Shown here piece by piece: positions 3,040 to 33,478 of a stretch of DNA of 64,000 nucleotides (positions are counted from its first letter, which is position 1; the number at the start of each line of letters is the position of its first letter). The stretch is from Escherichia coli (lineage in GTDB: Bacteria > Pseudomonadota > Gammaproteobacteria > Enterobacterales > Enterobacteriaceae): NCBI RefSeq assembly GCF_041248615.1, contig NZ_CP158426.1. One strand, given 5' to 3'. The notes under the pieces are model-generated. The model was not told where the DNA came from and searched no databases. It saw only the letters and a program-made list of their open reading frames with translations. The position numbers were made by a program, and so were the translations under genes.

Positions 3040-3333
3040 TCAGCTCATCAGCAGTGCGCCGATTTCACTGCCTCCACCAATCAGGATGCCGCCAATGATG
3101 ATGTAGGCGCACTGGGACAGGCTTTCGCCTTTCCAGAGTGTCTTGTAACCTACCCAGATCACGGCCACGGTAATGGTGATGGCCGCCAGGCCATTAAGGC
3201 CGGTGGCGACTTTTTCCATCACGGTATTTGCGCGTTGAAAGCCATCGGCAAAAACCGGAGGTACAGAACAAACGATGAGTGCAAATGCGGAAACATGACT
3301 GAAAGCGGCCTTAAGTTTGCAGCAAAGTGTCAT
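3040..3333 (-). CDS. virB2: VirB2-like pilin
   Basis: 97-aa ORF with signal-like N-terminus and two hydrophobic segments, placed between virB1 and virB3/4. Confidence 0.55.
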   Translation of the reverse strand: MTLCCKLKAAFSHVSAFALIVCSVPPVFADGFQRANTVMEKVATGLNGLAAITITVAVIWVGYKTLWKGESLSQCAYIIIGGILIGGGSEIGALLMS

Positions 3334-4088
3334 TATTCTTTCTCCTCACGGGGTGACAGGGAGAGGCTCCGGCGCAATGACGGCGTAGAGATCTTTTCTA
3401 TGGCAATTTTCTTCTGGCGGAATTTTGAGGGGACGCCACGAACCACGCCCTTCGGCCAGATCACGCAGGGACGTAACTGGTCACCTGCAGGCGTAGGCTT
3501 CAGGAACGGCGGGGGTGTCAATTTATCCTCGTGGGTTCCGGGTACGGCATAGTGGGGAGCAGCAGCGTAACCGATTCGTTGCACATAGCTGGTTCCGGAA
3601 AAAGCCGCTTCCGGCTGTTCTCCGGTACGGAAATTGCCGGAGTAGTAGCAACTCAGTGCTCTTTTCAGCGAGCCGCCGCGTCGGTAACAGTCGTTGAGGA
3701 TGTGTTCGAAAACAGACAAATTGGTACAGGGATCAAGCAGCTCAGAGGCTGTCACACCGTAATGATGGAAATTGGTGCTGGTAATTTGCATCAGCCCCAC
3801 AGAATAACGGCGGCTCTGCGCCATAAGGCGACCTATGATTCGCTCGGCTCTTTCCCGGCTGGTGGGCTGATGAGAAATGATTTTATTGTGACCGAAGGTG
3901 CCTGAGCCCTTTGGGATAATTTCGGCGATCGCATAAGGGTTAAAATTGGACTCCACCCTTACGACGTCGAGTGCTGTGGACGGATGAATGCTGGTGGCAC
4001 ACTGCATGGCCACCGCCAGAAAGGCAGATGTGGAAAGCATAGTAGCCTCGGGAATGCGGGCAGCGTACATAGCCAAAGAACCATGCAT
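3333..4088 (-). CDS. virB1: VirB1-like lytic transglycosylase
   Basis: 251-aa ORF with SLT-type motifs (VESNFNPYA, GLMQI); first gene of the virB cluster; true start may be internal. Confidence 0.7.
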   Translation of the reverse strand: MHGSLAMYAARIPEATMLSTSAFLAVAMQCATSIHPSTALDVVRVESNFNPYAIAEIIPKGSGTFGHNKIISHQPTSRERAERIIGRLMAQSRRYSVGLMQITSTNFHHYGVTASELLDPCTNLSVFEHILNDCYRRGGSLKRALSCYYSGNFRTGEQPEAAFSGTSYVQRIGYAAAPHYAVPGTHEDKLTPPPFLKPTPAGDQLRPCVIWPKGVVRGVPSKFRQKKIAIEKISTPSLRRSLSLSPREEKE

Positions 4089-4677
4089 GCTGAGGGAAAC
4101 TTGAAGGGGTAATGTGTGGTTTCGAGATTGTGAGCACTTTGCGCCGGATTTCCGAAGCCATAATAAAGGGTTTCATGAGATATTCTTTACAGGGCTTTTG
4201 ATTCGGGTAAATGCGGCACTAATGTTTTTGAAGTAGATGTTTTATTTCAGCGTGTCTGTTGAAAATTCAAGACCGACAAAATGATGTCACTTGGTTTTAT
4301 CTGGATAGTCTCTAATCAAAATAATAATTAATGGGTCACATCCCAATTCTGCATTCCGATTTCAACGGGTCAGCGAGAACATTCAGCGGCACACTGAATT
4401 AAGGTTGTGTGATAGCCTGATATAAATTATTAAAGAACGGTGCTCGACCAGGCTGAATAAATGCCTAACTGTCAGGTCGATGAGCAGAAACACTATCAGG
4501 ATGGATTTAATTAATATAAATTGGAATGATAAAGTGAAAATGAAATGATAAGAGTTTTTCGGGGATGAATTTTAGTAGTGTAAGGGGAGGGGGATATAAT
4601 CGATGATTGTGTTTGTACTAATAGTGAAATATAAAGACGTGCGGGGTTTTAATTCCCTGCACGCCTTACTGTTAACA

Positions 4678-4887
4678 TTAGCGTTTACGTCGTTCAAGCA
4701 TTTCCTGGCATTCTCTACACGTTGTTACTCCTGGCAGAGTGTGCCTCCGCTTTTCAGGAATTGGTCTACCGCAGAACTGACAGTGATACAGGGAAGGTGT
4801 TGCTGCTGGTTTGAAACGGCTTTGTTCAATCATTTCCTCCAGACGTTGCTCATTGAATTCCTGGTCGCGATCAACTTCGTCAGGCAT
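4678..4887 (-). CDS. traR: TraR/DksA-family C4 zinc-finger protein
   Basis: Translation MPDEVDRDQEFNEQRLEEMIEQ...CQFCGRPIPEKRRHTLPGVTTCRECQ; CxxC...CxxC motif; start taken at the internal Met of the 88-aa ORF. Confidence 0.7.
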   Translation of the reverse strand: MPDEVDRDQEFNEQRLEEMIEQSRFKPAATPSLYHCQFCGRPIPEKRRHTLPGVTTCRECQEMLERRKR

Positions 4888-4888
4888 A

Positions 4889-5461
4889 TCATGTCCTCCT
4901 GTCTGTCCTTCCCTGCTCGCAAAATGTGATTCGGTTACACACAACAGTGAGTGAGGGGGGATTGGGCTCTGAGGCTAACTCTTCGGTGATCTGCATCATG
5001 ATGTTAATTGCTTCATTAGCATCAGGACTTTTCCCTTTTAACGCCTTCCATCGGCACCATATTGTGGCATCCATGGTTTCATCAGGAAGAGGTGAGCGTC
5101 CATACGGTACAGAGATGCCCTGTAATCTGCGGTTGAAACAGACATCGTTGGAAGTAAGACCAAAATAATGCTTTAGTAAGGCTATAGATCCACCTAACCG
5201 GATCGCCCGATTAATTTGCTGATGATGCTGGGTTTCAGTACGTGCTCTTTCCAGCTGTTTGCGTAAAATGTCATGGTGAATTTTGACTGTAATAAATGAT
5301 GCGGGAGAGTGGCAGATGTTCAATAATACATCAAGTGGTAACTGACTGATTTCGTTTATTTCTTCAAGAGTAAATCCAAGTGTTTCACCATAAGATAAGT
5401 CACCATCCTTCAATGCATAAATTACATCCGTGAGTACGTAATAATTCAGCAAGGGAAACAT
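4889..5461 (-). CDS. Hypothetical protein (element-associated)
   Basis: 190-aa ORF directly between alpA and traR on the same strand; no motif recognised. Confidence 0.4.
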   Translation of the reverse strand: MFPLLNYYVLTDVIYALKDGDLSYGETLGFTLEEINEISQLPLDVLLNICHSPASFITVKIHHDILRKQLERARTETQHHQQINRAIRLGGSIALLKHYFGLTSNDVCFNRRLQGISVPYGRSPLPDETMDATIWCRWKALKGKSPDANEAINIMMQITEELASEPNPPSLTVVCNRITFCEQGRTDRRT

Positions 5462-5478
5462 AAGTTATCTCTCTTATC

Positions 5479-5664
5479 TTAGCGGTTAGCTAATTTACAA
5501 TTAATCCATTCGTCAATCTCCGACTCGAGCCAGGCTACGCTGGCTGGGCCGATTTTTATTGAGAGTGGGAAACGCTTGTCTTTCATATACAGATAGATTT
5601 GTGAGCGTTTAAGACCTGTTTTTTGCTCGACCTGTCTGAGGCGTAATAATTGATGAGATGGCAT
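5479..5664 (-). CDS. alpA: AlpA-family transcriptional regulator / excisionase-like
   Basis: 61-aa ORF; LRLRQVEQKTGLKRSQIYLYMKDKRFP matches the AlpA HTH pattern as I recall it. Confidence 0.75.
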   Translation of the reverse strand: MPSHQLLRLRQVEQKTGLKRSQIYLYMKDKRFPLSIKIGPASVAWLESEIDEWINCKLANR

Positions 5665-5798
5665 TTGTTCCTCCAGGGGCTTATGGCATTGCTATCATAA
5701 AGGAACACAGAATGATGTTTAGATAAAGACAGTGAACCCGTATTACGACATTATTCACCCGTAATACGGATCTCAGAGCTATATACACGAAGGATGTA

Positions 5799-6752
5799 CT
5801 ACTTCACCGTAGTTTTAAACGATAAAGGGGAGCCACGCTCCAGCGCCGTTTTTAGCGTATCACCGCTGAGATGATCGGTGATACCATCAGAGATTGCCCA
5901 TTCCTCAAATATAGACAAGAGTTTGTAGGGTTGTTTCACCAGAGGGCGTATATCATCATTATGATAACAGGCTAGCCAGAACAGCCGGGATAAGGGCGTA
6001 GATATTCTCGTCGGAGATAACTTGGGGTTTTTGTCACTGGTTAGCTTTTCTATCAATCTCTCAATTTCAACACATTTGATAACGAAAAAAGCATCTTGTG
6101 GCAAGTCATGCATTGGGAAGTAGCATGGATCCGCATAGTCCCGCTTTTCATTCCGCAAGGAAGACTCTTTTATTATAGAGGTGGTTTCATTCGATAAGTA
6201 TTTTATCTTGCTCTGAATTTGTTCTTTCCATGATATTTTATTGAAAAGTAAGAAAAGTTCATTTCCACTCGTAACAGTGATGCCAAAATTAATGGTGTCA
6301 GGATTATCAATAGGTAGTGGCATGCTGAGCGAGTCTGCTAGATATCTTTGTATGATAATGTATTCAAATCCAAATAGGTTTGTGTCCAAAATATTCCTGC
6401 GAGATGAAAAGTAATCTCCTTCAGTAGATATGATAAGGTTCCTATTATTTTTGAAACAATGTTTATCAAGAAAGCAGAGTCTCTTTAGCTCTGAATTGTC
6501 CAAGGTAGATATTTTTACTTTTTCTCCATTTTTAGTTATTTTTCGTAATGTCACCGGAGACTGGAAGTAAATGGATAGATTGATTTGCCCATACAGTGCA
6601 CAGCGATATATTGTACTTTCTGTAATTGAAGTATCGAATGTCTCATTAATCACTTGCACAGCTTCGTGTATTGTTAACCAGTTTTTTGCCATAAGCTTGA
6701 GATTGCTATTCCAGGACATAAGTGATTTTCCTTCATTTATTTTCTTTGGCAA
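5799..6752 (-). CDS. Hypothetical protein, possible N-terminal HTH
   Basis: 317-aa ORF, AT-rich; N-terminus LTIHEAVQVINETFD...TIYRCA resembles an HTH; remainder unrecognised. Confidence 0.4.
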   Translation of the reverse strand: MPKKINEGKSLMSWNSNLKLMAKNWLTIHEAVQVINETFDTSITESTIYRCALYGQINLSIYFQSPVTLRKITKNGEKVKISTLDNSELKRLCFLDKHCFKNNRNLIISTEGDYFSSRRNILDTNLFGFEYIIIQRYLADSLSMPLPIDNPDTINFGITVTSGNELFLLFNKISWKEQIQSKIKYLSNETTSIIKESSLRNEKRDYADPCYFPMHDLPQDAFFVIKCVEIERLIEKLTSDKNPKLSPTRISTPLSRLFWLACYHNDDIRPLVKQPYKLLSIFEEWAISDGITDHLSGDTLKTALERGSPLSFKTTVK

Positions 6753-6987
6753 TTATCTGATGCCATAAGTTAATTGATTGCTATCAATGTGAGAAATACC
6801 TCAGCGTTTATAGACATGCGAGGTTCAGAAAAATAAATTATCTTATTGATATTTCTTCTTTATAGCTTGTAAGTGGTAGTCGCCAATGATGCAAGGGAAA
6901 GGGTCTTTATGGGCATATATCCTATCCGTTAATTTCAACCATGTTCTGTTGTCCAGAGTCAGAATACATCTAACTCTGGATACGTTT

Positions 6988-8037
6988 TCACCAGTGATAA
7001 CTTATCCCTGTATCAAGTTTATCTGCACAGTCAATCCCTGCAGGGCTATTTCTGACGTTATTAAATTTATAATCTAAAAATATCTGCATATTTTTGTTGA
7101 AGTAGTAGCTAAAGCCTATTTCTTCATAATCCAGCACTCGGGTTCGTTGGCCAGCGATTGTTTGCGTCAGGTGAGTGTAACCAATGTTGGGCTGAAATCT
7201 GTCGGTCAGCATATACTTAGCCAGGGCTTCATAGCTGAAGGAGTTGGTATTATTGTTGCGAGGTTGGGGGTTGATAGCATTATTACTCTGCGTGAAAACA
7301 GTGGCCAGATAAAGTTTTTTGCTCTGGTACTTGACCCCCTCTGCGAAAGTTCGAATATTTTTTTTGTAACCGGCATTTTGTTGCTGTGAAAATGTGGTCT
7401 CGGAAGATGACGCAGCAAAAATTGCACTGAGCTTTGGCGTAAAGAACCAGGACAGCGAAGTACCAATACCATTGCCGTTCTGTTGTCTTAAGGTACGATT
7501 CTCGTTGTTACTTTTGAACTGGTATTGCATCGCTAATTTCACTGTCTGTTGAAAGACCGAAAATTTTTTTCGCCACGTAATAAGATCAAGGGCTCGGCCA
7601 CGCATGAAGTTGTCAATGTAGTTATAGGACATTTCCCTGAATAAGGGAGAGCGGTCTGTTATTGAGGTAACGTCGTACAGTACCCCCCAGTTCCGACCGA
7701 TATCAAGGCTTCCCCAGTACGGGTTGTCTACACCCAGAAACGCTAGCCGGGTTGCATTTCTGCTGGCATCTGATGCACTAACCGTATATTCCCAATGAGC
7801 GTAGGTTTGCCAGTTGTGGGTAAGTTCATGCTTCCCAATCAACCCAAAATAGAGATAGCTACGATCGCCATCATCTTTTATGTTATTACTGGTAAAACGT
7901 CTCGCAATAATAGTGCCATAAAAATCGAGACTTTTACCGTCCTGGTTCAGAACGTTGACCGCAAAAGAGTAGGGTGAGAAGAGTAGTGTGATTGATATAA
8001 AATAATAGCGTAAGTAATGCAATGTCATGATAAACAT
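6988..8037 (-). CDS. Outer-membrane porin-like beta-barrel protein
   Basis: 349-aa ORF with signal peptide (LLFSPYSFA), alternating amphipathic strands rich in Y/G/N/T, aromatic C-terminus. Confidence 0.55.
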   Translation of the reverse strand: MFIMTLHYLRYYFISITLLFSPYSFAVNVLNQDGKSLDFYGTIIARRFTSNNIKDDGDRSYLYFGLIGKHELTHNWQTYAHWEYTVSASDASRNATRLAFLGVDNPYWGSLDIGRNWGVLYDVTSITDRSPLFREMSYNYIDNFMRGRALDLITWRKKFSVFQQTVKLAMQYQFKSNNENRTLRQQNGNGIGTSLSWFFTPKLSAIFAASSSETTFSQQQNAGYKKNIRTFAEGVKYQSKKLYLATVFTQSNNAINPQPRNNNTNSFSYEALAKYMLTDRFQPNIGYTHLTQTIAGQRTRVLDYEEIGFSYYFNKNMQIFLDYKFNNVRNSPAGIDCADKLDTGISYHW

Positions 8038-8133
8038 CCCTAAAGATGGCTCAGCATCTGAATGGTGGCAGGGTGGACAATTTACCGCGACATATGCTCA
8101 TTGCTTAAATCCAATGGAATGAGATTATTATCG

Positions 8134-8970
8134 TTATGCTGAAGCGTTTTGTTTATGGCTAAAATAACTGATGATGCCATTAGAAATGGCGGATGCAATT
8201 TTGTTGCGGAATGCTGTTGTGCCTAATAATTTCTCCTCCTGTGGGTTGGTGATAAAAGAGGTTTCAATCAGGACAGATGGGATATAGGGTGATTTAAGTA
8301 CGGCAAAAGCTGCCTGTTCTGTATGGTTTGAATGCATATGGTGGACAGGAGAAATATGGTGAACTATATGTGATCCCAGTAAAAGACTTTCCCTGATGGT
8401 TTCAGTCTGTTCAAGATCGAAGATGATTTTGTCGAGATACTTGTCTCTGTGAATGATTCGTTTTCCTGCAATATTATCAGCAGCATTCTCACTTTTAGAT
8501 AGATACCTTGCCATAGCGCTGCTGGCTCCCCGTGTTGAAAGTGCAAAAACGGAAGCGCCATGGGCTGCAGGACTTGCGAAACCATCGGCGTGAATGGACA
8601 TAAATAGATCGGCTTTGTGTGCGTGAGCAATCTGTACGCGATCGTATAGTGGAATAAATGTGTCATCCGATCGCGTCTGGAGTGCATTAATACCGTGGCT
8701 ATTGAGAATGGCTTTTATCTTAGAGGTAATATCCAGTACTACATGTTTTTCCAGCGATCCTTCACAACCCACTGCGCCGGAATCAATACCCCCGTGTCCA
8801 GGATCTAGCATTATCGTAAATTTGCTACGCCCATTTGTTGGGAGGGAGGAATGCTTATGACTTAGCTGAGGTCGCATATGTGCATATGTCAGCGGTATAG
8901 CCAGTGTATTGGCTGCGAGGGCCGCTAAACCAGTAAGAATAAGTTTTCGCCGGGTAATGTTGGTGTTCAA
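8134..8970 (-). CDS. N-acetylmuramoyl-L-alanine amidase (AmiA/AmiC-like)
   Basis: 278-aa ORF; Tat-like signal RRKLILTGLAALAA; amidase_3 motifs (DPGHGG, SIHADG, ETSFITN). Confidence 0.8.
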   Translation of the reverse strand: MNTNITRRKLILTGLAALAANTLAIPLTYAHMRPQLSHKHSSLPTNGRSKFTIMLDPGHGGIDSGAVGCEGSLEKHVVLDITSKIKAILNSHGINALQTRSDDTFIPLYDRVQIAHAHKADLFMSIHADGFASPAAHGASVFALSTRGASSAMARYLSKSENAADNIAGKRIIHRDKYLDKIIFDLEQTETIRESLLLGSHIVHHISPVHHMHSNHTEQAAFAVLKSPYIPSVLIETSFITNPQEEKLLGTTAFRNKIASAISNGIISYFSHKQNASA

Positions 8971-9412
8971 TGTTGACGCCTCATGCTGAATGATTTGTTA
9001 TGTTATAACGTTATGAATTATTTAAGGTCGAGGACTTGAATGTTATTTTTTGTTGCTTCGGGTTACTTAATATTAATCATTGGAAAATCACGAGGCTCCC
9101 AATGTATTGATAAATTGGATTTTTAATACCCATCACTACCTCTCATCGCTTGAATCATGATGACATCAGGCGTCCAGGTATGATCGTAATCTGCAAGAGC
9201 ACTGCTGATTAGCCTTTGTCCCATCTGTTTACTTTAAATCCTGAATTATCAAACAGGACAATGGAGTCCTGCTGGAAACATATTGATATAGATCCTTTCA
9301 AAAGATAATTATTCTCATTATTATTGGTTATGTTATAACGTAACAATTGAGGGTGTGCCGAGATTTAGAATGAGTCTATCCATTATTCGATGACTTATTC
9401 TGGGGAGGAATT

Positions 9413-10795
9413 ATGTCAACTGAACATATCAAAGAAGAAAAACTCAACATTGGTGCTGTGCTGGCTGTATCACTTAGTACAGTGATTGCGATGCTGGACA
9501 GCACTATCGCAAATGTTGCCTTACCTGTTATTGGCAAAGATTTTGCCGTCTCAGAAGCTGCATCCATCATGATAATCAATGCTTACCAGTTTGCTGTGGT
9601 CGCTTCATTGCTGGTATTCGCTGCATTGGGAGGCAAAATAGGTAACAAACGTATTTTTATTCTTGGAGTGATTTTTTTTGCGCTTTCCTCGTTAGGATGT
9701 GCACTTTCTGAAACACTGATGATGCTGACGGCTTTTCGCGTCATTCAGGGCTTTGGGGCTGCGGCCATTCTAAGTGTGAATGCGGTGTTGATTAAAGAGA
9801 TCTATCCTGCCCGGTTGTTAGGTCGTGGATTGGGGATTAATGTAATGGTGGTCTCTGTTTCCGCAGCGGCGGGCCCGTCAATTGCTTCAGCTATTATGTC
9901 AGTTGCGAACTGGAACTGGTTGTTTTCTATTAATGTACCGATCGCTTGTATTTCATTGCTGCTCTGTATTGTATCGTTCAAATCGACGCAACGTACCGAA
10001 AACCGGTTTGATAAAGCGGGTGCGTTGCTGGTTTTCCTGACGTTCGCTTCGTTTTCAACGATGATGCTGGGTCTGGCGAGGAACAACGTGTTAGACGTTA
10101 TCCCAAGCTCGATTATTCTTGTCGTGCTGGCAATCACTTTGTATCTGAATCAAAAAAGAAAGATTACTGATGCTTTGATCCCGGTTGCGATATTTCGCAA
10201 CAGGACATTTTCTCTGTCGTTATTAATGTCTTTGTTATCATATAGTACGCAGTTACTGGCATATGTCTCCTTACCATTTTATTTTCATAATGTATTAAAC
10301 CGCAATGTCGTTGAAATTGGCATGCTGTTAACGGCATGGCCGCTGGCGACAATGTTGACGTCATTGGTCGCGGGTGAACTAATCAAAAAGTTCGAGCCCA
10401 ACCTGGTAGCATTTACCGGACTATTACTACTTTTGATAGGCACTCTTTTAATGACATGGCTGCCCGTACAACCCTCGAATCTGCAGATCCTCTGGCGGAT
10501 CGCTATTTGTGGTTTTGGTTTTGGACTATTCCAGTCCCCTAATAATTTTCTCATTATGACTTCGGTCCCACATGAAAATAGCGGTATTGCCAGCGGATTA
10601 TTAGGCAGTTCACGTCTGATTGGGCAGATTATTGGTTCTGTGCTGGTGGCGTTTTTCTTTAATAACTTTGGGCGTAATGTAACAAATATTAGTCTTTTTG
10701 CCGGAGCATTGTTCTCATTTATGTCTCTGGCGGTGAGTTATCTCCGCTATAAATCTGCTTCTCATGACGTTGGTTTTGTTAAGAAAGTAATATAA
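9413..10795 (+). CDS. MFS transporter (drug:H+ antiporter-like)
   Basis: 460-aa ORF with about 14 hydrophobic segments and an MFS signature-like loop (GKIGNKR). Confidence 0.8.
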   Translation: MSTEHIKEEKLNIGAVLAVSLSTVIAMLDSTIANVALPVIGKDFAVSEAASIMIINAYQFAVVASLLVFAALGGKIGNKRIFILGVIFFALSSLGCALSETLMMLTAFRVIQGFGAAAILSVNAVLIKEIYPARLLGRGLGINVMVVSVSAAAGPSIASAIMSVANWNWLFSINVPIACISLLLCIVSFKSTQRTENRFDKAGALLVFLTFASFSTMMLGLARNNVLDVIPSSIILVVLAITLYLNQKRKITDALIPVAIFRNRTFSLSLLMSLLSYSTQLLAYVSLPFYFHNVLNRNVVEIGMLLTAWPLATMLTSLVAGELIKKFEPNLVAFTGLLLLLIGTLLMTWLPVQPSNLQILWRIAICGFGFGLFQSPNNFLIMTSVPHENSGIASGLLGSSRLIGQIIGSVLVAFFFNNFGRNVTNISLFAGALFSFMSLAVSYLRYKSASHDVGFVKKVI

Positions 10796-10854
10796 GTCTT
10801 TCAATAAAATAATCATGTGATGCTATTAAATTACAATTCATTTAACTCATTGAG

Positions 10855-11943
10855 GTGCTAAGTATGCTTAATGGAAAAATATTATTCTCATTATTCATAT
10901 CATCGATAATATTATTATCAACGGCAAGCTATGCCAATAGTAGTGAGGTGAGTAAGACGATAAATGACCAAAATATGAAAAATACTGAAGAAATACCCAT
11001 AAAATTCAACCGTATTATTATCACCGGCAATTGCCCCTTTGGTGTAATTATGGCAAATGATTTGGCATATAAACATGTTGTGGGCGTAGGACCTTGGGCT
11101 TTTCTGCATTCAAACATGAAACTTCTCAAGGATATGAAGCCAGATATCGACCGTATCACTACTGACTTTATTAATAAAGACTATGTTGTAAATATGGAAT
11201 CCTTACTAAATTTACAACCAGATATTATTTACTATTATGGTAAAAGTCAGAATGATAATCTGCAGCGGGCAGGGATCCCAACTATTAATCTTGATGCTGG
11301 TGGTGACACGAAATTTGAGCCAGTAGTAACGCAAACGTATTGGGAAAACGAATTTAACCAGACGCTTGGTTTACCTCACAGTCACAAATTTTCGGATGCA
11401 TGGAAGAGAAGCCTCAATGAGGCAAAACCATATGCCGAGAAGATCAAATCACAACATATTCGGGCATTATATCTTGAGCAGAGTGATGGGAAAGAGCTCA
11501 AGGTGAGTGGGCCGAAAACATATGGTGATACCTATCTTAAGATGGCGGGGATGGAAAATGTAGCAAGTGATCTGGTGGTAAAAGGGGATGCTGGCAGGTA
11601 CATTAATGTTTCAATGGAGCAAATAATTCAGTGGGATCCCGATGTTGTATTTGTGGTCTTTGGTAGCGCGAAGGATATTCTTAATAATAAAAATCCCGGG
11701 CAAGATTGGCATAATGTTAAAGCATTCAAAGATGGGAAAATATTTTCTACACCCGTAGGACTACATAATTGGGGAGGATTGTCTGCTGAGACTTCGCTAT
11801 TACCATTGTTTATGATTAATAAATTTAACCCTGACTATATAACAGATGCAGAATTGAAAGTTGCAACGCGGTTACACTATAAAAAAGTGTTTGATTATGA
11901 AATTCCGGACGCGCTATTAACCGATGAGTTAAGACAGCGGTAA
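10855..11943 (+). CDS. ABC importer substrate-binding protein (siderophore/heme/B12-type)
   Basis: 362-aa ORF with signal peptide, directly upstream of FecCD-type permease and ATPase genes. Confidence 0.7.
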   Translation: MLSMLNGKILFSLFISSIILLSTASYANSSEVSKTINDQNMKNTEEIPIKFNRIIITGNCPFGVIMANDLAYKHVVGVGPWAFLHSNMKLLKDMKPDIDRITTDFINKDYVVNMESLLNLQPDIIYYYGKSQNDNLQRAGIPTINLDAGGDTKFEPVVTQTYWENEFNQTLGLPHSHKFSDAWKRSLNEAKPYAEKIKSQHIRALYLEQSDGKELKVSGPKTYGDTYLKMAGMENVASDLVVKGDAGRYINVSMEQIIQWDPDVVFVVFGSAKDILNNKNPGQDWHNVKAFKDGKIFSTPVGLHNWGGLSAETSLLPLFMINKFNPDYITDAELKVATRLHYKKVFDYEIPDALLTDELRQR

Positions 11944-11986
11944 TAAAGTAATTCGGCGAATAGGTTTTTATTTTTAAAGGTTAGTT

Positions 11987-13000
11987 ATGCAGGAAAGACA
12001 AAAATACCGCATGCTGATGTGGATTTCAATCGTATTGTTACTGATTGTGGCTATGATTTCTTTGTTCATAGGTCGCTATACATTATCTATCCCCGAAATA
12101 ATGACGGAGGTATTACATGATAATGGTCACCGTTGTTTGAGCGCAGGATTCTCGGTTATATGCAATCTACGGTTGCCAAGGATTATTGCCGTCATGATGG
12201 TAGGGGCAGGGCTATCAGTAGCAGGCGTGACGTATCAAGCGGTGTTGCGAAATGCACTGGCTAGCCCGGATGTGCTCGGTACATCTTCCGCCGCAGCGTT
12301 CGGCGCAGCACTTGGGATACTGCTAGGTTTTCCACTACAACTCAGCGCTTTTTCCTCTTTCTTCTTTGGCATTGTCAGCCTTTTATGCGTGATGGGACTT
12401 TGCCATTTCAAGAAAAACAATGGGGAGCTCACGACTATCCTGTCGGGCATCATAGTGGCTTCGGTGTTTATGTCTTTTGTATCAATCATTAAATATGTTG
12501 CCGATCCACAGGACGAACTCCCGGCTATCGTCTTCTGGCTTATGGGGAGTTTCGCTTCTCTGGTCAAAGAGCAGGTTTATGGACTCATCCCGCTATACAT
12601 CATTTGTTATCTGGCTATTTACAAACTTCGATGGAAAATCAATGTGTTGTCTTTGGGAAATGATGAGGCCAAAATTGCTGGAATGAACCCACAATTGTTG
12701 AATACAGTTTTGCTAATCACAGCCTCAATTTTGGTGGCAGCATCAGTCACCATCGCTGGCGTGGTGGGCTGGGTTGGTCTGGTTATCCCGCATCTGGTTA
12801 GAACGCTGGTCGGGTACAACCATAGCAAGCTGATCCCGGCTTCGGCTGTATGTGGTGCGTTGTTTTTATTGGTCATCGACAACATTGCCAGGACCCTGAC
12901 TTACGCAGAGATCCCCATTGGAATACTTACTGCTCTGGTTGGTGCGCCTTTATTTGCTGTACTGTTCATCATGAGTAACCGATATGATCGAAGTGAATAA
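11987..13000 (+). CDS. ABC importer permease, FecCD/BtuC family
   Basis: 337-aa polytopic ORF with GWVGLVIPHLVR-type motif. Confidence 0.8.
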   Translation: MQERQKYRMLMWISIVLLLIVAMISLFIGRYTLSIPEIMTEVLHDNGHRCLSAGFSVICNLRLPRIIAVMMVGAGLSVAGVTYQAVLRNALASPDVLGTSSAAAFGAALGILLGFPLQLSAFSSFFFGIVSLLCVMGLCHFKKNNGELTTILSGIIVASVFMSFVSIIKYVADPQDELPAIVFWLMGSFASLVKEQVYGLIPLYIICYLAIYKLRWKINVLSLGNDEAKIAGMNPQLLNTVLLITASILVAASVTIAGVVGWVGLVIPHLVRTLVGYNHSKLIPASAVCGALFLLVIDNIARTLTYAEIPIGILTALVGAPLFAVLFIMSNRYDRSE

Positions 13001-13739
13001 TCTGACGTTCGCATTCAAAAAGAGTAAAACTGCCTTTAACAATATCAGCTTCTCCATTGATGAAGGTGAGGTACTGTGCGTATTAGGACCGAATGGTGTT
13101 GGCAAAACAACATTGCTTAAAACGGTTACCGGTCTGTATCAACCGGTTAGTGGCTCATGTCATATTGGCCGAGTGGGAAACCGGAAAGCTCGTATGGCGT
13201 ATGTCCCGCAGGCCAAACGTGTTCACTTTTCTTACAATGTACTCGATTTCATCTCCTTTGGGTGCCCATTACGGGGCGGAATGCTGGCATCTCCTGGGGC
13301 GAGGGACATCGAAAAAGCGGCGCGAATATTGTCGGGACTTGGCGCTTCATATCTTGCAACCAAAGACGTTAACCAGATAAGTGGAGGTGAACTACAGATG
13401 TGCTACATCGCGAAGGCGCTGGTCTCAGAGCCGGACATCCTTGTGCTTGATGAACCTGAATCAAATCTTGATTTTAATAATCAGTCTCTCATTATCAATT
13501 GGTTGCACACGTTGTCGCGAGAGAAAAAAGTTACTATTATCCTGAATACGCACTTCATCAATCATGCAAATAACATTGCAGATAAATGTTTGCTAATGGG
13601 AAAAGATAGTTACTGTTTTGGAACAACACAGAGTGTCTTACAAGAGTCTCTCCTCGCCGATTATTTCCATGTTCCCGTTAAACGCTGTCATTTTGAACAC
13701 AAAGGAATACAGAAAGAATCATTTATTGTTGCAGTGTGA
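12984..13739 (+). CDS. ABC importer ATP-binding protein
   Basis: Walker A GPNGVGKTT, signature LSGGELQM, Walker B LVLDEP; overlaps permease stop (coupled). Confidence 0.85.
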   Translation: MIEVNNLTFAFKKSKTAFNNISFSIDEGEVLCVLGPNGVGKTTLLKTVTGLYQPVSGSCHIGRVGNRKARMAYVPQAKRVHFSYNVLDFISFGCPLRGGMLASPGARDIEKAARILSGLGASYLATKDVNQISGGELQMCYIAKALVSEPDILVLDEPESNLDFNNQSLIINWLHTLSREKKVTIILNTHFINHANNIADKCLLMGKDSYCFGTTQSVLQESLLADYFHVPVKRCHFEHKGIQKESFIVAV

Positions 13740-13934
13740 TAGGTAGCCAATATCGCAGAGAAAATAAGAATTGAGGAATTGTTTATTGCGAAACCGTGCG
13801 AGTAGATGGTAATTCTGGTAGGAATATCATTTACGATTGATCAATTTTCCCACGGACTATATGCGATAAAATAACTTTGTCGATGCATGAAATAGCAGCT
13901 TCATTTTGTTAAAAGTAATAATAAAGGTGTAATT

Positions 13935-14552
13935 ATGATTAAAAAATTCGTTGAAGAATATCTTAATCAGATCTACATAAAAAAATACTCAATTATTACT
14001 ATTAATTCTCTTGATGAAGCTTCAATTATATCTAATATGCCTCATTGTTGGGAGCGTGATTTTCTGAAAAGAGAGCTGCATCTTCGAAGTGATATTGTAT
14101 TGAAAGCTAGAAGTAAAATAACCCCCTTCAAATGGTCTTCTGTAAATGGTAATAATGAAGATCTTAAGGCTTTATCCAATAGGTATAATATTAGCAATGG
14201 GGTGACTTTTGTTATAAAAATAAAACATGATGTCGTGATCTTCACGATGTACTACAATGAGGATGATGAGGATTTCATAAGATACTACTCTAGAAAGAAA
14301 CATAAAATATTGTATGATGTTATGAGTCTTTTTGAATCCCATTATGAACAAACACCCAAACATGTATTCACTGTACGAGAAAAGGAAGTTATGAATTTGC
14401 TGAAGTTTGGAAAAACTTATATTGAAATAGCATTTATTCTTGGTGTAAGTGAAAGGACCGTCAGATTTCATATCAATAATATTCTTGATAAATTGAATGT
14501 GACATCAGTTCGTTATGCGATCTTTAAAGCAGCTTCCGAAGGTTTGATCTGA
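13935..14552 (+). CDS. LuxR-family transcriptional regulator
   Basis: 205-aa ORF; C-terminal LuxR HTH (REKEVMNLLKFGKTYIEIAFILGVSERTVRFHINNILDKLN); AT-rich N-terminal domain. Confidence 0.7.
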   Translation: MIKKFVEEYLNQIYIKKYSIITINSLDEASIISNMPHCWERDFLKRELHLRSDIVLKARSKITPFKWSSVNGNNEDLKALSNRYNISNGVTFVIKIKHDVVIFTMYYNEDDEDFIRYYSRKKHKILYDVMSLFESHYEQTPKHVFTVREKEVMNLLKFGKTYIEIAFILGVSERTVRFHINNILDKLNVTSVRYAIFKAASEGLI

Positions 14553-14883
14553 CAAGGTTTTCCTTGTCAGATCATCTATCAATGACGATAGAATTCTGAA
14601 AGGCGTAATCTCAAGCCATCGGTATCAAATCCATGCGCCCGAATGTGTTCTTCTGGGGTCCAAAATTGTCTGAGCTCCTTTGGTTTTGCACCAATGGACA
14701 AGATTCTGTGAGGTATATCGGACAATGCCTCACCTATAGCATGAATTGTCGTTCCTTCTAGGTATGGTTAACCTAGCCGGTTTATTACTACATGTCGTGG
14801 CAACTCCAGCGGAGTACATAATAGTCCATTCAGCATTGTTACTTTTTGTGAACTAGACTGGAAAAGAACTGGGTCAAATCACA

Positions 14884-16188
14884 TTAAATGAAGATACGTA
14901 GGCCGACCGCCGCCAGATGATCTGATACATTATATGACGCATCAGTGTTACCGCTTGCTTTCTCATAACCGTATTCAATATAGGTCACTGCGTTTTTCCC
15001 CAGCCAGTAATCGGTACCCAGCGTGGTGGACTGGAAGTGTTGACCGTCCATCGCATCACCGCCTTCGGTCCAGTCAAAGTTGGCATAGACGCTCCACTCA
15101 GGGGTAATTTTGAACTGTGAGGCATATTCCAGACCCAGAATCGTTTCTTGGTCGTTAGTCTGTTTGCTGGCGCCGCTGGTTGCTGCCTGAACGTCATCAA
15201 CTTTGTTGATATAGTAAGTCGCTTGCGCGCCGTTATACCAGGTGAAACTATCAAAGCTGGTTGTGTACTTAGCGTTCATCCCCATCGAATAGGTATTACC
15301 GTCATATGAAGGGCCGGTCACCGTTGTAACTGGAACAGTACCACCGTGCGGACCTATGGGCACATCCGTGGTTATGGTACCCTGATTGACAGAATAGTTG
15401 TTATAAGCTGCCGTACCGGAAAGTGAGAAACCATTATCGAAGCGATATTGTGCTGCTAACGCAGCGCCGCCGTGAACAGTCGCGGAACCATCGTGGTACG
15501 CATCATGCATATCCGGTCCGTTGCCGTAACCGCTGCCAAAACCAATTTTATCGACATCGTCATTCCCTTGGCCCATTACACCCACCGTGAAGGCCTTGGT
15601 GTTGTAATAATAAATAACAGCCGAGTTAATAATATCGGTCGACATACCAGTGGTATCATGTTTGGCTTTGCCACCGTATGCATAGGTGGTATCAATTCCC
15701 AGCCCCCAGTCGGTTGGGGAATATTGCTTACCGAAAGTCACCACCCCATATTCATCATTACCTATCCCCGCATACGCCTGACGGGTATAAACATCGTTAC
15801 CCTGATTATCAGTTGCGGAATCCAGACCGTGTATGCCAGTTTCATAATAACCTGCTGCGTAATAGCCTTTGTCATTAATATTGTGTCGTAGTGCGACACC
15901 CAGACGTGAGTCGTTGTTTTGTATATTATGTTCTACACTGTGCGCTGAATCGTTCTTTGCCATGAGACGTAAGGATCCCATAACTGAAATGGCTGTATCA
16001 TCATTTTGATAAATCATCTCCCCCTTGGTCTGTGTAGCAGTATATGCTGGAGCCGTATGTTCCCCGCTACTCACCTGTGCACAGGCAGGTGCGACTATTG
16101 CTGCAGTAATAAGCGGAGCAACAATAAATGGTTTAAGTCTTATATATTTTACGTGCATAGAAACCCCATGATCATTGTTTAAGTTCAT
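14884..16188 (-). CDS. Outer-membrane beta-barrel protein (porin-like)
   Basis: 434-aa ORF, likely start at internal MHVKYIRLKPF (16158); signal peptide, G/Y/T-rich strands, C-terminal ...GLRIFI. Confidence 0.5.
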   Translation of the reverse strand: MNLNNDHGVSMHVKYIRLKPFIVAPLITAAIVAPACAQVSSGEHTAPAYTATQTKGEMIYQNDDTAISVMGSLRLMAKNDSAHSVEHNIQNNDSRLGVALRHNINDKGYYAAGYYETGIHGLDSATDNQGNDVYTRQAYAGIGNDEYGVVTFGKQYSPTDWGLGIDTTYAYGGKAKHDTTGMSTDIINSAVIYYYNTKAFTVGVMGQGNDDVDKIGFGSGYGNGPDMHDAYHDGSATVHGGAALAAQYRFDNGFSLSGTAAYNNYSVNQGTITTDVPIGPHGGTVPVTTVTGPSYDGNTYSMGMNAKYTTSFDSFTWYNGAQATYYINKVDDVQAATSGASKQTNDQETILGLEYASQFKITPEWSVYANFDWTEGGDAMDGQHFQSTTLGTDYWLGKNAVTYIEYGYEKASGNTDASYNVSDHLAAVGLRIFI

Positions 16189-16370
16189 TTTTAGAGTGTT
16201 TTTTAAATATGGAGAGTCTATTAAAAGCTTTTGAATATAAAATAAAACTGTCAGTTCTGACAGGAGTGTTTTTTATTTTCAATTAAATTATTAAGCATTT
16301 TTTCGGAGATGTGGGTTTTTTACACGGTATTAGCGAAACGGTTTGCCATGTAGTTTGGACAAAGTAAAAA

Positions 16371-16400
16371 GCCGCATCAGTCTGCACTGATGCGGCTTTG
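16371..16400. terminator. Hairpin terminator downstream of island integrase
   Basis: Perfect 11-bp stem GCCGCATCAGT/ACTGATGCGGC with 4-nt loop, flanked by A-run and T-run. Confidence 0.55.
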
Positions 16401-16422
16401 ATTTGTCAGGGTGACTAAATCA

Positions 16423-17694
16423 CTAGCCAGCTTGAAGCGTCGTTTTTCCTCTCCCCAGTATGTAGGGCGGTACATAGGATTTGCGGCAAGTATCCAGATA
16501 ATCCGACCACCACTGCATCATTGCCTTTCTTGCTTCCAGATGCTCTGCTCTGTGAATATATGCCTGGCGTACGGAGTTACGTTCCTGGTGGCTCATTTGC
16601 CGTTCAACAGCATCCTGTGACCATATACTGGATTCCATAAGGGCACTGCATGCCATTGTCCTGAAACCGTGACCACAGATTTCCATTTTCGTATCCCAGC
16701 CCATCAGGCGTAGCGCCTTGTTCACCGTATTTTCACACATGGGTTTATACGGATTATGGTCCCCGGGGAACACGAGTGCATTATCTCCTGAGATATCCTT
16801 AATCTTTTTCAAGATCGCGATCGACTGTTGTGAGAGGGGTACGATATGAGGCCTGCGCATTTTGGCACCACGACCAGAGTAACGCACGCCTTCAATAGCT
16901 TCGCGCGTGGCGGGTATTGTCCAGACCTGGTTTCCGAAATCAATTTCATGCCAGCGGGCAAAACGCAATTCACTCGAGCGAATGAACAGATGCAGTGTTA
17001 GCAGGATGGCAAGGCGAGTGAGTTCACGGCACTGCTGAAAACTCTCAATGCTCTCAAGCAGTTCTGGAAGACGCTCCAGTGGTAGAGCGGGGTAGTGTCG
17101 TTTTACTGGTGGAGCCGTCACTCCGTCAAGGTTTGCTGCCGGATTAAAATCGATTAATCCATGATGCACGGCGTAGCGCATGATATTCCGGAGGTGCTGG
17201 CGTGTACGGGATGCAACTTCCAGGAGACCCTTTTCCTCAATTCCTTTTAATAAAGTGATGAAATGGCGGGGTTTCAGTTCTGAAACTGACATGGTGCCAA
17301 TGACTGGGAAGATATGATTATTCATGCTGGCGAGCAAACGGTCGGCGGTGTTCTCTGACCATTTTTTATTGCTCTTGTGCCATGCAAGTGCAACGTTTCT
17401 AAACACTTTCTTTGGCATGCGAGAACTGCGTTCGGCTGCTCGCTGCTCTGCTGGATTGATGTTCAGTACCAGCATTTTGCGAATACCTTCACGTTGACTA
17501 CGGGCGTCTGAGAGGGAGATGACTGGGTAGGCACCGAGTGCAATACGTGATTCTTTACCCTTAATACGGTACTTGAGATACCAGTGACGTGAACCGCCAG
17601 GTTTGACCAAGAGATACAGACCGTGGGAATCGGAAACTTTAAAGGGTTTATCAGATGGTTTGAGACTGCGGATTTTGGTGTCGGTAAGAGACAT
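16423..17694 (-). CDS. Tyrosine integrase, P4/CP4-57 type
   Basis: 423-aa ORF; N-terminus MSLTDTKIRSLKPSDKPFKVSDSHGLYLLVKPGGSRHWYLKYR is typical of P4-like integrases; adjacent to tRNA 3' end. Confidence 0.9.
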   Translation of the reverse strand: MSLTDTKIRSLKPSDKPFKVSDSHGLYLLVKPGGSRHWYLKYRIKGKESRIALGAYPVISLSDARSQREGIRKMLVLNINPAEQRAAERSSRMPKKVFRNVALAWHKSNKKWSENTADRLLASMNNHIFPVIGTMSVSELKPRHFITLLKGIEEKGLLEVASRTRQHLRNIMRYAVHHGLIDFNPAANLDGVTAPPVKRHYPALPLERLPELLESIESFQQCRELTRLAILLTLHLFIRSSELRFARWHEIDFGNQVWTIPATREAIEGVRYSGRGAKMRRPHIVPLSQQSIAILKKIKDISGDNALVFPGDHNPYKPMCENTVNKALRLMGWDTKMEICGHGFRTMACSALMESSIWSQDAVERQMSHQERNSVRQAYIHRAEHLEARKAMMQWWSDYLDTCRKSYVPPYILGRGKTTLQAG

Positions 17695-18922: not shown

Positions 18923-19012
18923 GGAGAGATGCCGGAGCGGCTGAACGGACCGGTCTCGAAAACCGGAGTGGGGGCAACTCCACCGGGGGTTCAAATCCCC
19001 CTCTCTCCGCCA
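18923..19012 (+). tRNA. serU: tRNA-Ser (anticodon CGA), serU-like; 3' half is attL
   Basis: GGAGAGATGCCGGAGCGGCTGAACGGACCGGTCTCGAAAACC...GGGGGTTCAAATCCCCCTCTCTCCGCCA; long variable arm; 90 nt. Confidence 0.9.
18951..19012 (+). repeat. attL (3' portion of tRNA-Ser)
   Basis: 62 bp matching 60161-60222 with two substitutions. Confidence 0.8.
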
Positions 19013-19057
19013 AAATTCAATCACTTACACATCATTAAGTCAGTGACAAAAATCACA

Positions 19058-19090
19058 CTTGGAATTACTTGGAATATTTTCTTGGAATAT
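19058..19090. repeat. Three direct CTTGGAAT repeats in the attL arm (putative Int/Xis arm sites)
   Basis: CTTGGAATTACTTGGAATATTTTCTTGGAATATTTTC overlapping the int 3' end. Confidence 0.4.
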
Positions 19091-20090
19091 TTTCAGGTAA
19101 CGGGACATCAAGTGTTGGTGAAACTTTAACCTTCCTGTCATAGATTAGCACTTGCCCTTCGGTTTTGTGACCAGAGAAAAGTTGCTTATCCCGGCTGCTT
19201 CCTTCATAGTCTGAAATTCCTTTCGCCTTCAGATCATGAAAGGTGAAGTCGGTTAAAATACCTGAAATTTTTCCAGCACGATTTCTTGCATCTACCCACA
19301 TTTCGTTAAAGCCTTTGTACATATATCGGTTGCCGTATTGATTGCTGATCACATAGGCAGATTTTGGTAACTGTTTTGCTTTTTCGATCGCTGCCTGTAA
19401 TCGTGGACTCCATGCTTTTATCTGTTTTTTTCCGGTTTTCCCTTGCTGGATGAATATCCCGTCGTTTCCAATCTGTTCCCATTTCAGCGATAACACATCG
19501 GAAACCCTCGCTGCACACAGATAGGCAATTTCCATTGCGATAAAAACAGGAAGAGGTGCAACGCTTAATACTGCCTGGTATTCTTTGTCGGTTACATATC
19601 GTTCGCGGTTTTTGGCCTTGAATTTACTTACACCTGCACATGGGTTAGCCTTCACGTACCCTCGCTCATACCCCCAACTGTAAACACGGGACATACTGCT
19701 TTTTTCATGGTTGGCTTGCGTTTTACTCTGCTCCCCTCTTTTGTCCATGTATCGACGGATGTGTTCTGGTTTTATGGAATCCGCTGGTACCTTACCGAAT
19801 ACGGCAAGCAACTTTTTTTGATGTTGCAGATAATCTTTTTGTGTTCTTGGACTAAGGTCACTGTAATAGGCGCTGGCGAGGAATTTTTCCCACAAGCGAC
19901 CGAATGTCATTGCACGATCGCGATTATTTACAGTTTCCTCATACTTTTTCCATAAAGCAGCTAAACCATCCTTGATGGCGGTTAGTGTGACAGATTCTCT
20001 GGATGTTGGTTTCCATACATAACTATATTTATTTGGGTATACATTTGGAGGTAATTTTTCGTGTTCAGGATTTTTCCTTCGTCTTCCCAT
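19065..20090 (-). CDS. Phage tyrosine integrase
   Basis: 341-aa ORF adjacent to attL; C-terminal catalytic region with conserved R...H..R...Y spacing. Confidence 0.9.
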   Translation of the reverse strand: MGRRRKNPEHEKLPPNVYPNKYSYVWKPTSRESVTLTAIKDGLAALWKKYEETVNNRDRAMTFGRLWEKFLASAYYSDLSPRTQKDYLQHQKKLLAVFGKVPADSIKPEHIRRYMDKRGEQSKTQANHEKSSMSRVYSWGYERGYVKANPCAGVSKFKAKNRERYVTDKEYQAVLSVAPLPVFIAMEIAYLCAARVSDVLSLKWEQIGNDGIFIQQGKTGKKQIKAWSPRLQAAIEKAKQLPKSAYVISNQYGNRYMYKGFNEMWVDARNRAGKISGILTDFTFHDLKAKGISDYEGSSRDKQLFSGHKTEGQVLIYDRKVKVSPTLDVPLPENIPRKYSK

Positions 20091-20293
20091 CAGATCGCAC
20101 CAAAATTCGGCTCTACCTCGCGTGGTGGTAAAGTTTTATTGCAGGTAAATAGATCCCGGCTGACAATCGGTTTGCCACTACGATTGGTATAGAACGGAAG
20201 CCCGTTTTCCATTAACCATTTTCGCTGGTGGCTTGCATATTTGCAGCCCGTTAATATTAGCAATTCATCTTCGGTTAAAAATAAGCTGCTCAT
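20090..20293 (-). CDS. Excisionase-like protein (DUF4224-like)
   Basis: 67-aa ORF upstream of and overlapping int; LTEDELLILTGCKYASHQRKWLMENGLPF pattern. Confidence 0.6.
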   Translation of the reverse strand: MSSLFLTEDELLILTGCKYASHQRKWLMENGLPFYTNRSGKPIVSRDLFTCNKTLPPREVEPNFGAI

Positions 20294-20351
20294 AGCTATA
20301 TCTCATAACCGCCGCTAACTATATACGGTTAGCGGCAATTAGGGTTGAACA

Positions 20352-22793
20352 TTAAAAATCAGCCTGACTCGGGATCAGTTTTTGCCAGATAGCTGAAACG
20401 TATTTTGCCTGGTAACGAGCGTCATCAAGTGCATTATGGCGCTCACCTTCGAATGGAATAGCCGTTCTGGCATCGAAGTCTATGGCTTTCCCCAGCTCAA
20501 CGATTGTGCGTACATCGCGATCGTTGTAGTAACGCCACGGGCAGGGGATCCCCTGCCGTTCGTATGAACGGCGCAAAATCGTGTTGTCGAAGTTGGCTCC
20601 ATTTCCCCAAACCTGAACAAAAAATTCACCGGAGTTTTCGTCGATAAATTCCCGCAATTGTAACAGTGCATCATCTAACGGGATTTCATCGGTCATAATG
20701 GCAGATTGCGCTTCGCGTGATTGCTTAAGCCACCATTTAATGGTGTCCCGATCAATGACTCCGCCAGCAGTTTCCAGATCGATAGTCTTACTAAATTCCG
20801 GTCCCATATCTCCGGTTTGCGGATCGAAAAATATTGCACCTATTGAGATGATCGGGGCATCAGGATTTTTTCCCATGGTTTCAAGGTCGATCATTAGATG
20901 GTCACACGTCCTGCTGGTGGATGTGATTTCGTGATGACCGTTCACCTTAATTGGGTGATCTGCCGTCTCGCCAGTTTTATTATCGCTGGCGTGATGCTGA
21001 TTGCCGCCAGGGTTCTCCTTGTGTGGATGTTCAGCGCCTTCCATTTCCTCCGGATCATTTTCCTGAACTTCAACCTGATTCTCTTCATCGAATGTTTCCT
21101 GGTATGTTGCGTCGCCCATCACCGCGCCACAATCAGGGCAGTTGCCGCCACCGCTCTGACCGCAGGCGGTGCAGACTTTTTCCGGTTCCTGTTGCGCTAC
21201 TGGTTCGGATTGTTTCGTTTCTGGCTCGTTTTGTAACGCATTTGGGCTGTTTTGTTCCGCTTTTTGGTCGTTCCGTTCCGATTCATGCTGGTTCTGGTTC
21301 ACAGAATCGCGAGTCTGGATCCCCTTGACCCATTTCGGATCATTAGGGTCGCTAATCCCCTCAACAAATTCACCACGCGATACAGCAAGTAACTTATCGG
21401 CGTCAGGCTGGCTGATATTGGCTGCCTGCATAATTTTGTTTACTTCGTCAGCGGTGACTTTTACTTGGTTAGCGGAACTCACCTGCGACTGAGCATCCAG
21501 CGACTGCGCGTTCTGGCCATGTTCAGTTGTATCCGGTTCCATTGTTTCAGTTGTTGCCTGTTCACCTGCCATTGCGTCAGATGGTTGTGGTTTTTCTTCT
21601 TCTGTTTCACGCTCAGTAACCACCTCGCGGTTAATTTCTTCCAGGATATCTTTTTCCGGCGTATGCCGGGCAGCTGTGAGAGTTTCCTTGCTGGGGTTCT
21701 CGTGATCAGTTTCCGTCAAATAGGCGTTGATATACCCCTGAAGGCGTCCCGGGTAGTGATAAAATTCAGGGTGTGCGCTTCGGATAAGTGCAAAAATAGC
21801 GGCGCGGGAATAGTCCAGAATACCCGGGGTTGCACGAAGTGCTGCGGACCATTCTTTGAACGGACTTTCTTTGTTCAGGACTACTTCTTTTGCGCGACGA
21901 TAAACGCTGCCCGGAATTTCATAAATATTAAAATCCATCGGAAGTGTGGCTGCTGCAATCTCCACATCCAGTGTGTCGAGGGTGTGTACTAAATTCGGAT
22001 TGCGATCGGTTTTGTTCCCACCGCCAGCATTAGCACCGGAAGCCGTGCGGGTGATGCGTGAAACACGATTTCCTTTCATCCACTCTTTTGTCAGCAGACC
22101 CCGATCAGTGTAGTCAGCGTCCAGGTATGCTTCGAAAAAAGCAGTTATTAGTCCCAGGTCTGAATTACCAGGATTAGGGAAAACTTTGTCAGTGTCACGA
22201 ACCAGTTTGTGGAGGTCGCGAATCTCCAGCGAGTCGAGCAGACTGGTTTTATGCGAAATAGCCAGGGCAGTAACAGCCGGTAGTTCTTCAGCCCGTGCAA
22301 TGTGTAATGCCTGGAGTTCGTCGCGTGAAACGTGCGTTACTGGTTTTTCGCTGCCGTGTTGAGCAAGCCAACGAATGGGCAGTTCCTGACCGGAGACAGG
22401 CAGAAGCATGCTCTCCTCAATCTCAGTCATGTCTTCGCCGTTGATGTTGGTATTGTCAGTGCTGGCTGGTTTGTCCTGAACAGAGGGGGAAGGGCCGATA
22501 AATGTCATTGTGATGCCATCTTTCCCGCCTTTTTCATAGCGGTTGCAGAATTCAGTATCAAACACGCCTTCTGGCGGAAGGTCGTCAACAACGGGCAAAT
22601 TGACGCGGACGGGTTTTTTAAAGTCGTCTTCATCATAATCGTTGTCATCCATTGCGGTAATGCAGCGGGAGATTGCAACAGATAATTTTTTTGCTGTAGT
22701 CCAGTAAAAACCACCTTTAATTCCCAGGCGTTTTCTTACTTTGTCATTTTTTGCTTCGCAATATAGTGCAAATTCTTCTTTATCAGTGCTCAT
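20352..22793 (-). CDS. Large early protein with C-terminal DnaQ-like 3'-5' exonuclease domain (intact YdfE-like)
   Basis: 813-aa ORF; C-terminal MIDLETMG ... WGNGANFD ... HNALDDA (DEDDh motifs); central [16 protein letters not shown] zinc ribbon; acidic low-complexity linker. Confidence 0.7.
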
Positions 22794-22886
22794 TATTGGT
22801 AAACCTCATCACAGATTTAAGGGTGAACAAATCTCTGCCATTGCTGACATATAAGAATGAAACTGGATATTTATTACGGTGCTGTT

Positions 22887-24049: not shown

Positions 24050-24078
24050 ACTGATTCCTCGCGGTGCTACTTCGCTTA

Positions 24079-24207: not shown

Positions 24208-24208
24208 A

Positions 24209-33477: not shown

Positions 33478-33478
33478 C

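Follow-up and report, generated by a model that had tools for sequence, protein, structure and literature searches.

What do the two proteins that flank alpA, directly ahead of the T4SS operon, contribute to the integrative element that encodes them? The window, that is, the whole stretch of 64,000 nucleotides of Escherichia coli DNA analyzed here, contains open reading frames (ORFs) of 317 and 190 codons on either side of alpA, and both precede traR and virB1 on the same strand. The original prediction described this arrangement correctly, as the ORF list showed, and suggested a regulatory or DNA-processing role for the pair, while assigning neither protein to a family. Below, we describe the element, the two proteins and the noncoding sites around them, and we then propose a putative mechanism by which they would act.

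A relative of the yersiniabactin island

Annotation was taken from the RefSeq record of E. coli NRZ14408 (NZ_LT599825.1), which is 100% identical to the window. The ICE runs in the order tRNA-Asn, int, cargo, orf306 (the larger gene), alpA, DUF2857 (the gene of the 190-aa protein), traR, virB1 to virB11, coupling protein and mobC, and it is a tRNA-Asn ICE, a sibling of the yersiniabactin HPI-ICE (ICEEc1/ICEKp type). The T4SS, the coupling protein, mobC and int are all annotated as intact. According to the ORF list, the genes of interest lie on the minus strand: orf306 (5799-6719), alpA (5479-5664; Pfam Phage_AlpA, E 2e-25), the BisC-like DUF2857 gene (4889-5461), traR (4678-4888 from its ATG, or 4678-4944 from a TTG; TIGR02419, E 2e-23) and virB1 (3333-4088). 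The latter encodes a lytic transglycosylase (Pfam SLT, E 1.5e-13) and is the first gene of the T4SS operon, with virB2 and a virB3/4 fusion beyond it.

The Hef/Xis region of the Yersinia HPI, ICEEc1 and ICEKp1 belongs to the same backbone as the window ICE, and the block studied here is equivalent to the AT-rich part already known from the HPI (PMC2801613). However, the window ICE carries other cargo instead of ybt. This cargo (6988-17694), which stands between orf306 and int where the HPI has its ybt locus, includes two porins, amiA, an MFS transporter, a Fec-type ABC transporter and a helix-turn-helix regulator. Elsewhere in the window, we noted a lambdoid prophage remnant beside tRNA-Ser (about 19000-27000, with a frameshifted int, exonuclease, dicB and ydfABC) and an array of four tRNA genes (Met, Lys, Thr and Gly; 33401-33710).

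A genome scan with one genome per species yielded 46 orf306 loci. In about 40 of the 46, orf306, alpA, DUF2857 and traR occur in this order, mostly followed by virB1, virB2 and virB4. Searching from the DUF2857 side with two query proteins led to the same layout, and all seven places reached (7/7) carried a Pfam-less gene of 302-304 aa, with AlpA upstream and TraR downstream. In E. coli AR_0128 (L069), fyuA of the yersiniabactin island is directly followed by the block (fyuA, hyp308, AlpA, DUF2857, TraR, virB1), whose products are 46% (orf306), 85% (AlpA) and 45% (DUF2857) identical to those of the window. Related modules were present in 216 of 5426 complete E. coli genomes, and a near-identical module was present in five. 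Judged by this synteny, orf306 and the 190-aa gene belong to the conserved backbone of a mobile element that is a relative of the yersiniabactin island.

Most relatives also encode a conserved protein of 73-77 aa (MRKPxYHVFVTQESQPD...GKLVLLEPRE) between traR and virB1, for example at 10564-10785 in L002 and at 4006-4239 in L059; this ORF is absent between traR and virB1 in the window (4089-4677) and in its close relatives L005 and L016. The same spacer in the ybt HPI-ICE of AR_0128 contains a PGAP-annotated fragment of the Hha/YmoA family (8603-8752), which is of interest because the module is AT-rich and possibly H-NS-silenced.

The 190-aa DUF2857 protein and traR

Contrary to the original prediction, the smaller protein could be placed in a family. 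It matched Pfam DUF2857 (PF11198) over residues 6-183 with an E value of 2.2e-48 and 164.6 bits (cut-off 36.8), and it has more than 380 homologues at E <= 1e-3; NCBIfam and PADLOC gave no match. The protein aligned end to end with the DUF2857 proteins of pKLC102, a Pantoea plasmid, ICEHin1056, a Ralstonia element and a Klebsiella element, at 26-36% identity and with ten invariant residues. DUF2857 is a domain of BisC from ICEclc, and BisC together with the ParB-like BisD activates transfer-competence promoters (PMC7423338). Moreover, ChIP-seq places BisC at the transfer promoters of ICEclc (PMC12409273). On the basis of these alignments, the 190-aa protein is a member of the DUF2857/BisC family.

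The AlphaFold model of the 190-aa protein (pLDDT 88.3) is all-alpha and consists of ten helices; as modeled, the protein has an FlhC-like helical fold. It nevertheless differs from FlhC in several respects. The two are 14% identical, the Pfam FlhC family (PF05280) was not matched, and the CxxC...CxxC zinc site is missing, the cysteines at positions 50, 108, 136, 175 and 181 not being conserved. Unlike in the FlhDC system, no FlhD partner gene is present.

The likeness to BisC of ICEclc (Pseudomonas) extends to membership of the same Pfam family over the full length, the FlhC-like all-alpha fold and an ICE operon led by alpA. However, the window gene lacks an upstream ParB-like bisD as well as a STY4528 gene, it is followed by a coupled traR, and the T4SS of the window ICE is VirB-type (MPF_T), whereas that of ICEclc is of the MPF_G type. 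In all five MPF_G elements inspected, DUF2857 stands directly after a ParB-family gene and before a STY4528-family gene. The RefSeq annotation of the window ICE contains neither a ParB-like nor a STY4528-family gene, and tblastn searches of the whole 42.6-kb locus with five BisD-like queries found no BisD/ParB homologue (best E 0.65). BisC is inactive as an activator without the C-terminal 'act' domain of BisD (PMC12409273). Therefore, since BisC needs BisD in ICEclc and none was found here, an activator role of the DUF2857 protein would need another partner or autonomy.

The gene after DUF2857 encodes a TraR/DksA C4 zinc finger. Proteins of the TraR family bind the secondary channel of RNA polymerase. 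In the RefSeq coordinates, the ATG of traR directly abuts the stop codon of DUF2857, which suggests translational coupling; relatives show an 11-nt overlap between the two genes. Boundaries between the genes of the block are tight in general.

The orf306 family and its relation to BisR

The original prediction gave the larger protein a length of 317 aa. An ORF of this length exists when it is read from the TTG at 6752 (5799-6752), but the extension overlaps the ribosome-binding site of orf306, and translation probably starts at the ATG at 6719, giving 306 aa. This start is the RefSeq choice and is backed by alignment with 45 homologues, in which the C-terminal 60 residues are almost invariant. 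At E <= 1e-3, we found 385 homologues of 300-316 aa, about 50% identical, which occur only in Enterobacterales and are all named 'hypothetical'; an exhaustive HMMER search with the family returned 351 cluster representatives at the same threshold. Judged by their homologues, orf306 and the 190-aa gene are real genes and not chance ORFs. No significant match to orf306 was obtained in Pfam (with single sequences and with all 46 members), NCBIfam, PHROGs or PADLOC, and no significant PDB match was obtained by sequence. Hence, as far as curated libraries are concerned, the earlier failure to assign this protein still stands, and orf306 is a member of an uncharacterised and unannotated Enterobacterales family.

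The AlphaFold model of orf306 (pLDDT 75.9, pTM 0.62) has three parts, namely a putative winged helix at residues ~13-72, an alpha/beta middle and a four-helix C-terminal domain at ~236-298. The N-terminal part forms a beta-alpha-alpha-beta-beta unit, and its structural matches to the MerR/Xis/AlpA-type class are weak. On these weak matches, the N-terminus may be a winged helix of the MerR/Xis kind.

As had been noted earlier, the larger ORF is AT-rich, and within the block the highest AT content is that of orf306. Its GC content in the window is 0.38, compared with 0.43 for alpA and DUF2857 and 0.52-0.54 for virB; the mean values across loci are 0.384 for orf306, 0.435 for alpA, 0.511 for DUF2857 and 0.58 for virB1. 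The GC content of orf306 is below that of DUF2857 in 41 of 42 loci, and AT-richness is a trait of the family. The gene is probably silenced. Upstream of orf306 in the related loci, we found no conserved operator or promoter except the ribosome-binding site. In roughly 6-10 loci, orf306 has suffered frameshifts or truncation while the downstream genes are intact, a pattern more consistent with a dispensable trigger than with an essential repressor.

Some loci deserve separate mention. In Proteus mirabilis ATCC 29906 (L044, 7956-9660), frameshifts split orf306, and an IS3-family insertion interrupts DUF2857 after codon 44; Providencia stuartii (L046) has a split orf306 and the same 44-codon DUF2857 stub. 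Further distant orf306-like proteins are found in L054 and L055, in islands with retron or T6SS genes. There, small genes follow the orf306-like gene, L055 also has ORF6N and AAA_25 genes, and the layout resembles that of a satellite.

In ICEclc, the activator of the alpA promoter is BisR. An ICEclc-type element of Ralstonia has the order 248-aa hypothetical gene (BisR family), AlpA, ParA, shi, ParB and DUF2857. Because the BisR-family gene stands directly before AlpA there, and orf306 likewise lies immediately upstream of alpA on the same strand of an integrative element, orf306 occupies the BisR position; palindromes in the spacer are a further likeness. However, direct homology to BisR was rejected, as hhalign gave 0.1% between the families and 0.3-1.2% domain by domain. 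The two proteins also differ in length (306 aa for orf306, 248-251 aa for BisR), the C-terminal domain of orf306 is of another type, and neither domain is significantly similar. Comparisons of the orf306 C-terminal domain with BisR gave hhalign probabilities of 1-27%, the merged profile reaching 27% (E 7e-4). An equivalence to BisD, through either its ParB-like or its activation domain, was also rejected (hhalign 0.1-0.2%), and the exhaustive HMMER search from the orf306 family returned no proteins of ParB length.

A connection to BisR runs through sibling proteins of orf306 that have the BisR C-terminal domain. The orf306 family matched a set of distant relatives (300-380 aa) over its full length (hhalign 99.7%, E 6.8e-27, 283 columns). 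Three of these relatives, P0376, P0347 and P0351, are each encoded immediately ahead of alpA. In L067 and L068, a P4-type integrase immediately precedes the distant relative; L066 is a 2.3-kb contig that is too short to show this. The C-terminal domain of several distant relatives matched BisR with 96% probability when the domain was used alone (E 4e-9) and 77% at full length, and that of P0376 matched with 97% (E 1e-10). The C-terminus of orf306 itself is of a type other than that of BisR and is only weakly similar to those of P0364 and P0356 (E 3-6e-3). According to these profile comparisons, orf306 is not a demonstrated BisR homologue but belongs to a mosaic pre-alpA group that shares domains with BisR.

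Noncoding sites and a putative switch

Two palindromes of 11 bp each, CCGTATTACGG (5759-5769) and TCGTAATACGG (5738-5748) on the minus strand, are conserved between orf306 and alpA and form a candidate operator (5738-5769). Their starts are exactly 21 bp apart, and the pair lies 29 nt past the orf306 stop codon, upstream of the predicted alpA promoter. The palindromes emerged from a 31-locus intergenic alignment, and nearly all loci keep the pair at 21-bp spacing, with a variable loop between. Variant half-sites change symmetrically, as seen in L038 (CCGCGTTGCGG), in L032 and L050 (both CCTTAWTAAGG) and in L069 (CCTAAATAAGG). Distant loci have analogous paired palindromes at 20-21 bp spacing, and the BisR-alpA spacer has TTGCA-type palindromes without the 20-21 bp pair. 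As RNA, the pair could form a 13-bp hairpin (-22.7 kcal/mol, z -3.1). The window contains three matches to the operator site, against 0.58 expected, and none of 100 shuffles reached three. The third, CCTTAATACGG at 17559-17569, has one mismatch and falls within int, in the 5' portion of that gene and close to the attachment end at tRNA-Asn. Since other loci do not conserve it, it may be due to chance. No extra operator copy upstream of virB or int was conserved in the related loci. Four loci (L018, L026, L042 and L031) have 5-6 kb between orf306 and alpA and carry the palindrome pair twice, after orf306 and before alpA, which suggests tandem or recombined elements.

A weak promoter-like site for the alpA operon (5694-5721, minus strand) consists of TAAACA, 16 nt and TATGAT, and it would place the palindrome centres ~56 and 77 bp upstream of the implied transcription start. 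This site is only a prediction, since the consensus scan that yielded it found no more sites than in shuffled sequence. Other loci have a conserved TGTGTT..TTGTCA block that aligns with its -10 region. After traR, a terminator-like hairpin with a T-rich tail (4627-4663, minus strand) has a predicted energy of -23.2 kcal/mol (z -4.2), and none of 200 shuffles was as stable. A hairpin is kept at this position in 16 loci, and as predicted from sequence and fold, it would end the alpA-DUF2857-traR transcription unit.

Upstream of virB1, on the minus strand, lies a conserved noncoding block of ~106 nt (4335-4440). Its identity exceeds 90% in 27 loci whose neighbouring proteins are only ~50% identical. 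The block contains an inverted repeat, AATTCAG-N7-CTGAATG (4380-4400), that occurs once in the ICE. No Rfam match was found for the block, nor was any Rfam family found in window positions 3900-7100. The RNAalifold structure of the block has almost no covariation, the sequences being too invariant to judge. We regard the block as a candidate regulated virB promoter, operator or leader.

AlpA is 80-87% identical across loci. It is likely the excisionase (recombination directionality factor) of the element and, by position, the counterpart of Hef/Xis of the HPI and ICEKp1. Overexpression of ICEKp1 xis raises excision (PMC13023037). In the literature on the HPI/ICEEc1/ICEKp1 lineage, we found only int and xis studied.

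Overall, we propose with moderate confidence that orf306 and the DUF2857 protein, together with alpA and traR, form a conserved regulatory and excision module that resembles a BisR/AlpA/BisC switch without the ParB clamp. In this putative mechanism, orf306, the product of a probably silenced gene, would be a DNA-binding regulator with an Xis/MerR-type winged helix. It would act at the two palindromes and thereby turn on the alpA-DUF2857-traR operon. AlpA would then serve as the excision factor, a step that rests on the lineage literature, namely the work on Hef and the ICEKp1 xis study. The DUF2857 protein, perhaps with the coupled TraR, would activate the virB/T4SS promoter region, and the virB1/T4SS operon is the presumed downstream target of the module. 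Which protein binds the operator, whether regulation is positive and which promoters are targeted are all inferences. The general part of the original prediction, a regulatory or DNA-processing role, is supported by the synteny of the four-gene block, the BisC family and FlhC-like fold of the smaller protein and the putative winged-helix N-terminus of the larger one. The two proteins do not both fall into well-characterised families of unrelated function, and both are present in related elements.

The palindromes could equally be bound by AlpA. The only loci in which the AlpA recognition helix, KTGLKRSQIYLYM, varies are L038, L032 and L050, which are also the three with the most altered sites. 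A reading in which AlpA uses the palindromes to regulate its own expression or for excisive recombination would leave orf306 with another function, for example as an accessory to DNA processing or replication once the element is excised. The one-mismatch site in int, close to the attachment end, would suit AlpA, and NCBI names relatives of DUF2857 'pathogenicity island replication protein'. However, the half-sites differ between the window and L069, L009, L024 and L059, although their AlpA helix is identical, and the site near int is conserved in no other locus. The NCBI name comes from gene context only, whereas reporter and ChIP data identify BisC as a promoter-bound activator. We consider this reading doubtful.

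It is also improbable, in our view, that orf306 is a repressor or maintenance factor that prevents expression of the alpA operon, perhaps through occupancy of the palindromes. Its DNA-binding-type N-terminus and the proximity of the palindromes to the predicted alpA promoter would fit repression. ICE and prophage repressors are often encoded at the borders between cargo and transfer genes, which is where orf306 lies, and L064 has cI-like HTH genes nearby. Against repression, however, several loci have only a pseudogene or a truncated form of orf306 although the ICE and alpA-DUF2857-traR persist intact, the palindromes lie upstream of the predicted -35 rather than over it, and BisR, whose gene takes the corresponding place in ICEclc, is an activator. 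Very improbable is a decaying or hitchhiking remnant in which both proteins are without present function in the window element. Frameshifts or an IS disrupt some of the related copies, and the window is missing the 73-77 aa ORF between traR and virB1. However, both ORFs are intact in the window and in most loci, many genera share full-length conservation of ~50% and a C-terminal domain that hardly varies, and the transfer and integration genes of the element are annotated as intact.

Beyond the activating module that we prefer, we speculate, as a tentative possibility, that the HPI/ICEKp/ICEEc1 elements contain a stripped-down version of the ICEclc bistable switch. In such a version, an FlhC-fold activator would work without the ParB-CTP clamp, orf306 or TraR would be its co-factor, and the trigger would be a mosaic pre-alpA protein that swaps C-terminal domains with BisR.

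The 190-aa protein is a known family in a new architecture, and orf306 represents an uncharacterised family with a clear genomic niche. For experiments, the module offers a candidate trigger (orf306), a candidate operator, a BisC-type activator and a conserved pre-virB region. It also raises the question of a BisC-type protein that acts without the ParB clamp that ICEclc requires, and it links the VirB-type and MPF_G (ICEclc) lineages of ICEs through a common regulatory logic. A 2026 study of ICEKp1 int described the control of ICEKp1 excision and transfer as poorly understood, and this backbone carries yersiniabactin and, in Klebsiella, colibactin and other cargo among Enterobacterales.
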